DNA of 64,000 nucleotides from Escherichia coli (GTDB taxonomy: Bacteria; Pseudomonadota; Gammaproteobacteria; Enterobacterales; Enterobacteriaceae), in NCBI RefSeq assembly GCF_003334765.1, contig NZ_QOWT01000015.1; one strand, 5' to 3'. The notes under the pieces were generated by a model. The model saw nothing but the letters and a program-made list of their open reading frames with translations. It was not told the DNA's origin and searched no databases. The position numbers and the translations under genes are program-made. Below are positions 11,000 through 63,470 of this stretch, piece after piece; the stretch's first letter is position 1, and each line of letters begins with the position of its first letter.

Positions 11000-11212
11000 T
11001 TACAGGCTGGTTACGTTACCAGCTGCCGGGCCTTTAGCGCCGCTTTCGATGGTGAAGGACACTTTCTGACCTTCGTCCAGAGATTTGTAACCATCGTTCT
11101 GGATAGCAGAGAAGTGTACGAACACATCTTTAGAGCCATCGTCAGGAGTGATGAAGCCGAAGCCTTTGTCAGCGTTGAACCATTTTACGATACCAGTCAT
11201 TTTACCGGACAT
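11000..11212 (-). CDS. cspA: Major cold-shock protein CspA (70 aa)
   Basis: ORF track; [38 protein letters not shown]... with the RNP1 motif KGFGFI. Confidence 0.97.
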
Positions 11213-11410
11213 AGTGTATTACCTTTAATAATTAAGTGTGCCTTTCGGCGATATGGCGTGCTTTACAGATTTTGAAGCGTTAAAGGAATGTGCACTACGA
11301 GGGGTATCAACGATAACTCTTGAAGGGACTTGCCTTACTACACTGCTTTAATGGTCTGTACGTCAAACCGTTGATGTGCATTAAGCCACGCATTGGCGGG
11401 TGATGCAACA
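11213..11410 (-). promoter_or_regulatory. cspA long 5' UTR (~159 nt) with cold box, plus core promoter
   Basis: Reverse strand reads ...GGCTTAATGCACATCAACGGTTTGACGTACAGACCATTAAAGCAG...; cold-box element TGACGTACAGA at ~11351-11366; -10 CTTAAT just upstream of the inferred transcript start (~11371). Confidence 0.75.
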
Positions 11411-28396: not shown

Positions 28397-29397
28397 GTAC
28401 GCAAGAGGCCACCCTGCAACAACCGCTGTTGCAGGCTATCGACCTGAAAAAACATTATCCGGTGAAGAAAGGCATGTTCGCGCCGGAACGTCTGGTTAAA
28501 GCGCTGGATGGCGTTTCGTTTAACCTTGAACGTGGCAAAACGCTGGCAGTAGTGGGCGAATCTGGCTGCGGTAAATCGACCCTCGGTCGGTTGCTGACGA
28601 TGATTGAAATGCCCACCGGTGGCGAGCTGTATTACCAGGGGCAGGATCTGCTTAAGCACGATCCGCAGGCGCAGAAGCTGCGTCGGCAGAAAATCCAGAT
28701 CGTCTTCCAGAACCCTTACGGTTCGCTGAATCCGCGTAAAAAAGTCGGGCAAATTCTTGAAGAGCCGCTGCTGATCAACACCAGCTTAAGCAAAGAACAG
28801 CGTCGGGAAAAAGCCCTGTCGATGATGGCGAAAGTCGGCCTGAAAACCGAGCACTATGACCGCTATCCGCATATGTTCTCCGGCGGTCAGCGTCAGCGTA
28901 TCGCCATCGCCCGTGGTCTGATGCTCGACCCGGATGTGGTGATTGCCGATGAACCGGTTTCCGCGCTGGATGTTTCAGTGCGCGCGCAGGTGCTGAATCT
29001 GATGATGGATTTGCAGCAGGAGTTGGGGCTGTCTTATGTCTTTATCTCCCACGACCTGTCGGTGGTGGAGCACATTGCTGATGAAGTGATGGTGATGTAC
29101 CTGGGCCGCTGCGTGGAGAAGGGAACGAAAGACCAAATCTTCAATAACCCGCGCCATCCGTACACTCAGGCGCTACTTTCCGCGACGCCGCGCCTGAACC
29201 CGGACGATCGCCGCGAGCGCATCAAGCTCAGCGGTGAACTACCAAGCCCACTGAATCCACCGCCGGGTTGCGCCTTCAACGCCCGCTGTCGTCGGCGCTT
29301 CGGCCCCTGCACCCAGTTGCAGCCGCAGCTAAAAGACTACGGCGGTCAACTGGTAGCTTGTTTTGCTGTTGATCAGGATGAAAATCCGCAGCGTTAA
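28393..29397 (+). CDS. dppF: Dipeptide ABC transporter ATP-binding protein (334 aa)
   Basis: ORF track; Walker [10 protein letters not shown], signature FSGGQRQR; 4 bp ATGA overlap with the dppD stop. Confidence 0.96.
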
Positions 29398-60019: not shown

Positions 60020-61699
<1,680 letters not shown>

Positions 61700-61951
61700 T
61701 TATCGGCTTTTCTTTAAGGGTAGTCATTCGCTCCGCCTGGTGGGCGACAAAGCGTGCGGTGGATCACGTTTATTAACCTGTCAAAAAATATAACGCACTA
61801 ATATCAATGGAATTTATAAAAATACCGATTTGGTGTTGTTTTTCATTTTCAGAACATTCAATCCTGCTCTCGCCGCAATCATGATATGCCATTCCTGATC
61901 TGGGTAATAGGCACAGGCTATCTTATTGATAGTTTATATTCATGTAATTGA

Positions 61952-61965
61952 TTGATTCCTATCAA
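61952..61965 (+). promoter_or_regulatory. FNR binding site TTGATTCCTATCAA upstream of ccp
   Basis: Perfect match to the FNR consensus TTGAT-N4-ATCAA, centred ~115 bp upstream of the ccp ATG. Confidence 0.7.
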
Positions 61966-62072
61966 AAAGCGTATCTCCCTGTTTTTTATGATGGCTTTGT
62001 CTCGCAGAGACGTTTGCAGCATTCTGGAAAATTTTCTGGGTCACAATAACTCACCACCGTGAGGGAAGAATA

Positions 62073-63470
62073 ATGAAAATGGTCTCACGTATTACCGCGA
62101 TCGGCCTGGCTGGCGTCGCGATTTGCTATTTAGGGTTATCTGGTTATGTGTGGTACCACGATAATAAACGCAGTAAACAGGCCGATGTTCAGGCATCTGC
62201 TGTCAGTGAAAATAATAAGGTTTTAGGCTTTCTCCGCGAAAAAGGATGCGACTATTGCCACACGCCTTCGGCAGAATTACCCGCCTATTATTATATTCCT
62301 GGCGCGAAACAGTTGATGGATTACGACATTAAGCTTGGATATAAATCTTTTAACCTTGAGGCCGTGCGTGCGGCACTGCTGGCTGATAAACCCGTTTCGC
62401 AAAGCGATTTGAATAAGATTGAATGGGTGATGCAGTATGAAACTATGCCACCAACGCGTTATACCGCGCTACACTGGGCGGGTAAGGTGAGTGATGAAGA
62501 GCGGGCGGAAATACTGGCCTGGATTGCAAAACAGCGCGCGGAATATTACGCCAGCAATGATACTGCTCCGGAACATCGCAATGAACCGGTGCAGCCCATC
62601 CCGCAAAAACTGCCTACCGATGCGCAAAAAGTGGCGTTGGGTTTTGCGCTGTATCACGATCCCCGTTTATCGGCTGATAGCACCATTTCATGCGCTCATT
62701 GCCATGCGTTGAATGCGGGGGGCGTCGATGGCAGAAAAACATCGATTGGTGTTGGTGGCGCAGTTGGGCCGATTAACGCGCCGACGGTATTTAACTCAGT
62801 ATTTAACGTTGAGCAGTTCTGGGATGGTCGTGCGGCAACATTGCAGGATCAGGCTGGTGGACCGCCGTTGAACCCGATTGAAATGGCGTCGAAATCCTGG
62901 GACGAAATTATTGCTAAGCTGGAAAAAGATCCGCAGCTTAAAACGCAGTTCCTCGAAGTCTATCCGCAAGGTTTCAGTGGCGAAAATATTACTGATGCCA
63001 TTGCTGAATTTGAGAAAACATTAATTACGCCGGATTCCCCATTTGATAAATGGTTGCGCGGAGATGAAAATGCGCTGACGGCGCAACAGAAAAAAGGCTA
63101 TCAATTATTTAAAGATAATAAATGTGCAACTTGTCATGGTGGTATTATTCTCGGCGGACGTTCCTTTGAACCGTTGGGGCTGAAAAAAGACTTTAACTTT
63201 GGGGAAATTACGGCGGCGGATATTGGTCGTATGAATGTGACTAAAGAAGAGCGTGATAAATTGCGTCAGAAAGTACCCGGTTTACGTAACGTTGCTTTAA
63301 CGGCACCGTACTTCCATCGCGGTGACGTGCCGACGCTGGACGGGGCGGTGAAACTGATGCTGCGCTATCAGGTAGGCAAAGAGCTGCCGCAGGAGGATGT
63401 GGATGATATCGTAGCTTTCCTGCACAGTCTGAACGGGGTGTACACGCCGTATATGCAGGATAAACAATAA
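62073..63470 (+). CDS. ccp: Cytochrome c peroxidase (YhjA), di/tri-heme, membrane-anchored (465 aa)
   Basis: ORF track; N-terminal TM anchor; three CxxCH heme motifs (CDYCH, CAHCH, CATCH). Confidence 0.93.
   Translation: MKMVSRITAIGLAGVAICYLGLSGYVWYHDNKRSKQADVQASAVSENNKVLGFLREKGCDYCHTPSAELPAYYYIPGAKQLMDYDIKLGYKSFNLEAVRAALLADKPVSQSDLNKIEWVMQYETMPPTRYTALHWAGKVSDEERAEILAWIAKQRAEYYASNDTAPEHRNEPVQPIPQKLPTDAQKVALGFALYHDPRLSADSTISCAHCHALNAGGVDGRKTSIGVGGAVGPINAPTVFNSVFNVEQFWDGRAATLQDQAGGPPLNPIEMASKSWDEIIAKLEKDPQLKTQFLEVYPQGFSGENITDAIAEFEKTLITPDSPFDKWLRGDENALTAQQKKGYQLFKDNKCATCHGGIILGGRSFEPLGLKKDFNFGEITAADIGRMNVTKEERDKLRQKVPGLRNVALTAPYFHRGDVPTLDGAVKLMLRYQVGKELPQEDVDDIVAFLHSLNGVYTPYMQDKQ

Follow-up and report, generated by a model that had tools for sequence, protein, structure and literature searches.

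The FNR box of the FNR/OxyR co-activated ccp (yhjA) promoter of Escherichia coli: a well-conserved site in a well-conserved promoter geometry

The palindrome TTGATTCCTATCAA at positions 61952–61965 of the window (the whole 64 kb stretch of Escherichia coli DNA under analysis) is very probably the FNR operator of the ccp (yhjA) promoter, a predicted class II promoter that OxyR would co-activate, with the two regulators together forming an AND gate. That an FNR site serves an FNR/OxyR co-activated ccp promoter is already known and published, and the site itself is ordinary and well conserved. The present analysis adds that, across the Enterobacterales, the OxyR–FNR–(−10) geometry is conserved with base-pair precision, and brings together conflicting data on occupancy in vivo; in addition, the leader may carry a conserved 5′-terminal hairpin. 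The relevant features are, in order of their coordinates:

60020–61669, − strand: treF, the divergent neighbour, a 549-aa ORF (NCBIfam NF009773 TreF, 1216 bits)
61907–61943, + strand: OxyR-type array ATAGGCACAGGCTATCTTATTGATAGTTTATATTCAT, of the form ATAG-N7-CTAT-N7-ATAG-N7-tCAT, with 14 of 16 consensus positions matched and its centre at 61925 (about −74)
61945–61957, − strand: candidate IHF-core match AATCAATCAATTA (WATCAR-N4-TTR), overlapping the left FNR half-site
61952–61965, no strand: FNR box TTGATTCCTATCAA, with a perfect palindromic core and a predicted centre at −40.5/−41.5; conserved
61987–61992, + strand: −10 hexamer TATGAT, 5/6 against TATAAT, 21 bp downstream of the FNR box
61999–62000, + strand: predicted transcription start, from the position of the −10 hexamer, giving a leader of about 74 nt
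61999–62011, + strand: candidate 5′-terminal mRNA hairpin GTCTC-GCA-GAGAC, beginning at the predicted +1
62050–62063, + strand: candidate hairpin CTCAC-N4-GTGAG, its 3′ arm lying over the Shine–Dalgarno sequence GAGGG (62061–62065)
62073–63470, + strand: ccp (yhjA), the regulated gene, 465 aa (RefSeq 'ccp: cytochrome c peroxidase')

The product of ccp is a membrane-anchored tri-haem cytochrome c (quinol) peroxidase; it contains the Pfam domains Haem_bd, CCP_MauG and Cytochrom_C, which constitute the tri-haem YhjA/Ccp architecture. This identity is based on Pfam and on the RefSeq annotation, given that a comparison with NCBIfam yielded only MauG/MbnH-type matches below cutoff. The RefSeq start codon of ccp is the same ATG as used here. 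The ORF coordinates leave a divergent treF–ccp spacer of 403 bp, the length given in the initial annotation, and this spacer is rich in A+T, with a GC fraction of 0.40 where the window as a whole has 0.515. Of 5426 complete E. coli genomes, 5423 contain the 601 bp surrounding the FNR box, at 95–100% identity, and the flanking genes in the matching genomes are annotated as treF and ccp. In E. coli strain 600055 (NZ_CM129037.1 3219334–3221310), an IS1 element is inserted in the treF–ccp spacer. It lies where this spacer has its highest AT content, upstream of the OxyR array, with the end of its transposase CDS 341 bp upstream of the ccp ATG; the ccp promoter module of this strain appears to be intact despite the insertion.

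The FNR box agrees with TTGAT-N4-ATCAA at 10/10 core positions. Read directly from the letters, it is the perfect palindrome that the initial annotation had reported, and its distance from ccp, put there at some 115 bp, is likewise correct; measured from its centre (61958.5), the box is 114.5 bp upstream of the first base of the ccp start codon. It is the sole perfect copy on either strand of the window. Dinucleotide shuffles contain such a sequence with a mean of 0.12 per window (at least one copy in 12 of 100 shuffles), and about 0.001 sites are expected in the treF–ccp spacer from the base composition of the 403 bp themselves. Judged from sequence comparison, the box is far beyond chance, and the basis for this is its conservation across species. 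The same ccp site was predicted by Myers et al. 2013 (PMC3688515), whose Table S6 gives it as site 3667319, TTGATAGGAATCAA, yhjA/treF, with a PatSer score of 14.16, above the threshold of that study.

Downstream of the box, the −10 hexamer follows after a gap of 21 bp in Escherichia, Citrobacter and Trabulsiella, and of 22 bp in most other genera. The sequence at 61964–61969 (AAAAAG), 17 bp upstream of the hexamer, has 1/6 matches to TTGACA, and a scan with the sigma-70 consensus found no promoter on the + strand. The missing −35 element and the lack of a sigma-70 promoter on this strand both fit an activator-dependent promoter. If the hexamer is taken as −12 to −7, the transcription start falls at 61999 and the centre of the FNR box at −40.5; a start at 62000 would give −41.5. 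The exact start, which we infer in this way, is also weakly backed by the hairpin beginning at 61999, a position at which hairpins begin in many orthologues. Partridge et al. are said to have placed the FNR site at −40.5. With the predicted start, the ccp promoter would fit a class II architecture.

The initial annotation had also supposed that the remaining spacing leaves room for an additional activator site, and this room is indeed taken up by the conserved OxyR-type array at 61907–61943. In the window, it is the only match to the OxyR consensus at up to two mismatches (0.01 expected by chance). Across 25 distinct promoters, the orthologous arrays score 12–15 of 16; array and box are 33.5 bp apart, centre to centre, in 24 of these promoters and 44.5 bp apart in one. 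The exception is Providencia burhodogranariea (L017:2301–2503), in which 11 bp are inserted between the array and the box; this adds one helical turn and keeps the helical face. When the spacer was scanned for sites of other regulators, neither NarL/NarP heptamers (TACYYMT) nor any perfect CRP site turned up.

The present analysis itself shows the FNR site, the OxyR array and the −10 hexamer, and also that their spacings are fixed and that they are conserved. A scan of one genome per species gave 41 loci encoding Ccp relatives, 40 of which were scanned for the box. It is found at the homologous position in 35 of the 40, with 0–2 mismatches; the core is perfect in 26 of these loci, has one mismatch in six, and two in three. 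The box-bearing genera are Escherichia, Citrobacter, Providencia, Pluralibacter, Trabulsiella, Hafnia, Buttiauxella, Enterobacillus, Entomohabitans and Yersinia. In the scanned loci, the box usually lies 86–121 bp upstream of the ccp ATG. It is absent from the second Entomohabitans copy and from the non-Enterobacterales Saezia, Lachnospiraceae and Chloracidobacterium. An alignment of 17 promoters from 10 genera (A1) has a mean column identity of 48%, and its invariant columns cluster in three blocks, namely the OxyR array, the FNR box and the −10 hexamer. The ATAG/CTAT/ATAG block at 61907–61932, corresponding to the first three OxyR elements, is invariant or nearly so. The invariant bases of the FNR box are T61952, T61953, G61954, A61955, C61963, A61964 and A61965, and those of the hexamer are A61988, A61991 and T61992.

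Individual loci have features of their own. In Escherichia albertii (L003, about 2380–2430), the box departs from the consensus at one position (TTGATTCCTGTCAA), and the gap between box and −10 hexamer has been widened by two bases to 23 bp; the ccp promoter of this species may be weakened. Some Citrobacter spacers contain a second FNR-like site, TTTATGCTTATCAA or ATGATAACCATCAA, towards treF, about 306 bp upstream of ccp in two loci (L007, L009) and about 266 bp in another (L035). In Providencia heimbachae (L022), the FNR box is 226 bp upstream of ccp, and the predicted leader has about 185 nt, compared with 66–75 nt in four other Providencia species; this suggests an insertion. Entomohabitans teleogrylli has two ccp copies (L023, L024), only one of which has kept the OxyR/FNR module. 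The betaproteobacterium Saezia sanguinis (L026) encodes a Ccp with 73% identity in a locus that lacks the module, an indication that the gene was transferred horizontally and its promoter logic was not.

The leader offers two candidate RNA structures. In 15 of 22 distinct orthologue leaders, a hairpin starts from the seventh nucleotide after the −10 hexamer, with sequences that differ from one another. In an Escherichia/Citrobacter alignment anchored on the −10 hexamer (A3), the pairing of this 5′ hairpin holds in 88% of cells, against 30–48% with shifted partners. In two of the pairs, both bases have changed, one pair going from U-A to C-G and the other from C-G to U-A. Within a small and closely related set of sequences, this suggests that 61999–62011 may form a 5′-terminal stem-loop of the mRNA-stabilising kind. 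MAFFT/RNAalifold applied to the whole leader missed this hairpin, as gaps were placed inside it. The second candidate, at 62050–62063, has an invariant stem and a variable loop in 17 Escherichia, Citrobacter and Pluralibacter leaders, and was also picked as a stem by a terminator scan. There are no compensatory changes in the 17 leaders, and it is therefore regarded as a conserved palindrome only; the stem could modulate translation, or could simply be conserved sequence. The whole ccp leader folds no better than shuffles (z = −0.75), and an Rfam search of 61600–62200 gave no credible match (the best was speF, with E = 0.92 and 12.5 bits, against a gathering threshold of 37).

In the proposed mechanism, dimeric [4Fe-4S]-FNR would bind the box under anoxia, at about −40.5/−41.5 and thus over the missing −35 element, and, as a class II activator, the bound FNR would bring RNA polymerase to the −10 hexamer TATGAT. 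On the four-element array, 33.5 bp further upstream (about −74), a tetramer of oxidised OxyR would provide a second activating contact; we infer that RNA polymerase is contacted by both activators. The promoter would then operate as an AND gate whose two conditions for firing are the lack of O2 and the presence of H2O2, and the periplasm-facing, quinol-linked peroxidase could use H2O2 as a respiratory electron acceptor. By this switch, the biology of which is already published, E. coli and its relatives restrict production of the peroxidase to oxic/anoxic interfaces, for example the gut epithelium, where H2O2 can be respired.

The dependence of ccp on FNR and OxyR, and the binding of FNR in vivo, are taken from the literature. 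Partridge, Poole & Green (Microbiology 2007;153:1499) are cited in the literature for the activation of yhjA by OxyR and, under anaerobiosis, by FNR; in a RegulonDB-linked curation paper, both proteins are listed as activators of yhjA, FNR for anaerobic conditions. Binding of FNR at yhjA and treF in vivo was found by ChIP-qPCR (Lemmens et al., PMC2690998). Papers of the Imlay group state that Ccp is induced by OxyR, in the presence of H2O2 and the absence of oxygen, and that it enables the respiratory chain to take H2O2 as its terminal acceptor. The genome-wide data of Myers et al. (PMC3688515) conflict with the ChIP-qPCR result: in anaerobic glucose medium without H2O2, site 3667319 has no FNR ChIP-seq peak, and ChIP-chip enrichment of both H-NS and IHF overlaps it (Table S6). 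Predicted sites of this peakless kind are read in that study as masked by nucleoid proteins, and its treF data hint that H-NS masks oxygen-responsive regulation across the shared treF–ccp spacer. In Table S12 of the same paper, the value for yhjA is 0.50. Since the values for dmsA (0.018) and narG (0.02) are low and that for cyoA (36) is high, they behave as +O2/−O2 ratios; by this reading, the absence of oxygen raises yhjA only some 2-fold when no peroxide is present.

A consensus core is no guarantee that FNR occupies a site in vivo, and FNR alone neither clearly occupies nor strongly activates the ccp promoter. The anaerobic induction foreseen in the initial annotation covers half of the logic only: without peroxide, anaerobic expression of yhjA was about 2-fold higher, and the site had no ChIP-seq peak. 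The present data together with the literature fit an AND gate: ccp expression needs FNR, but FNR by itself is not enough.

FNR-like sites with one mismatch are over-represented in the window (7, against 2.45 expected; 0 of 100 shuffles reach 7). One of these, TTGATGTGCATTAA at 11371–11384, lies upstream of cspA (11000–11212, − strand) and corresponds, by coordinate mapping, to the 'cspA' site 3717900 of Myers et al.; unlike the perfect ccp site, it has an FNR ChIP-seq peak. Another, at 29369–29382, corresponds by the same mapping to the silent site of Myers et al. within dppF.

It is conceivable, though we would rather doubt it, that array and box make up a composite element of rigid spacing, in which oxidised OxyR is needed for FNR to occupy a consensus site otherwise masked by H-NS/IHF. 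The help given by OxyR to FNR might, just as tentatively, consist in direct or RNA-polymerase-bridged cooperativity, or in anti-silencing. If true, OxyR-dependent binding of FNR would explain why there is no peak at the perfect core of ccp without H2O2 and a peak at the one-mismatch site of cspA, and the AND gate would act at the level of FNR binding, not only at that of RNA polymerase recruitment.

In principle, the box might also be bidirectional, or serve chiefly the divergent treF. The ChIP-qPCR signal reported at both genes does not bear this out, as ChIP-qPCR cannot tell apart two genes that share a 403 bp spacer. At 289.5 bp upstream of the treF start codon, and some 265 bp from the one promoter-like element found on the treF strand, the centre of the box is too far away for class I or class II activation. 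In addition, treF adjoins ccp only in Escherichia and Citrobacter; in the other genera, the FNR/OxyR/−10 module is found at its fixed distance from ccp. Since the module accompanies ccp even where this gene has a neighbour other than treF, ccp is its target, and treF is probably not a conserved target of the box; a role chiefly or equally for treF is improbable.

More improbable still is a high-scoring but silent FNR motif that is permanently occluded by H-NS/IHF, with the oxygen regulation of ccp being indirect. The missing ChIP-seq peak and the enrichment of H-NS and IHF over the site (PMC3688515) would agree with such a motif, as would the AT-rich spacer and the IHF-core match over the left half-site, a match that is kept in E. 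coli, most Citrobacter and Pluralibacter and not in more distant genera. Myers et al., however, carried out their assays without H2O2, when OxyR is inactive, and fnr dependence (Partridge et al. 2007, as cited in the literature) as well as ChIP-qPCR occupancy (PMC2690998) has been published. Moreover, half-sites that are invariant across some ten genera, at fixed spacings to the −10 hexamer and the OxyR array, would be unexpected if the motif had no function.

Binding of CRP in place of FNR can be given next to no weight: the sites of the two proteins are related inverted repeats with the same centre, and the palindrome matches 7/10 core positions in the CRP register, but the half-sites invariably read TTGA/TCAA (not GTGA/TCAC), which excludes a CRP site; their first T·A pair, the established discriminator between FNR and CRP, occupies invariant columns in all 17 aligned orthologous promoters, and the treF–ccp spacer contains no TGTGA-N6-TCACA.

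Taken as an FNR operator with an OxyR array upstream, the site can be compared with several known systems. The E. coli K-12 yhjA promoter (Partridge et al. 2007) is the same locus with the same sequence, 100% identical to many E. coli genomes, and has the same regulators, FNR and OxyR; as far as locus, sequence and regulators are concerned, nothing differs in substance. The addition made here is the comparative conservation of box, array, hexamer and spacings across the Enterobacterales. Like the class II promoters of nirB and narG, in which FNR at −41.5 is combined with NarL/NarP upstream, the ccp promoter has its box over the −35 region and its −10 hexamer some 21–22 bp downstream, with a second, signal-specific activator upstream that would provide AND logic. 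Co-activation has been described as a category of FNR promoters by Myers et al. (PMC3688515). Unlike in nirB and narG, the co-activator of ccp is the LysR-type peroxide sensor OxyR, with a 37 bp, four-element site, and not a nitrate response regulator. The two inputs of ccp are also physiologically opposed, being the absence of O2 and the presence of an oxygen-derived oxidant, which is not the case for nirB and narG.

Like katG, ahpC and oxyS, ccp has an array of the ATAG-N7-CTAT-N7-ATAG-N7-CTAT type upstream of its core promoter. In the katG, ahpC and oxyS promoters, OxyR abuts the −35 region directly; in contrast, the FNR dimer would be located between OxyR and RNA polymerase at ccp, with the OxyR centre at about −74. 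In the literature of the Imlay group, ccp is listed in the OxyR regulon, and katG has an FNR site with a ChIP-seq peak (Myers et al., PMC3688515, Table S6). Finally, the ccp site differs from the silent FNR sites of Myers et al. 2013 (PMC3688515): it is not among the set of five there, and it has independent evidence of function from genetics (Partridge et al. 2007, as cited in the literature) and from ChIP-qPCR, together with strong phylogenetic conservation.
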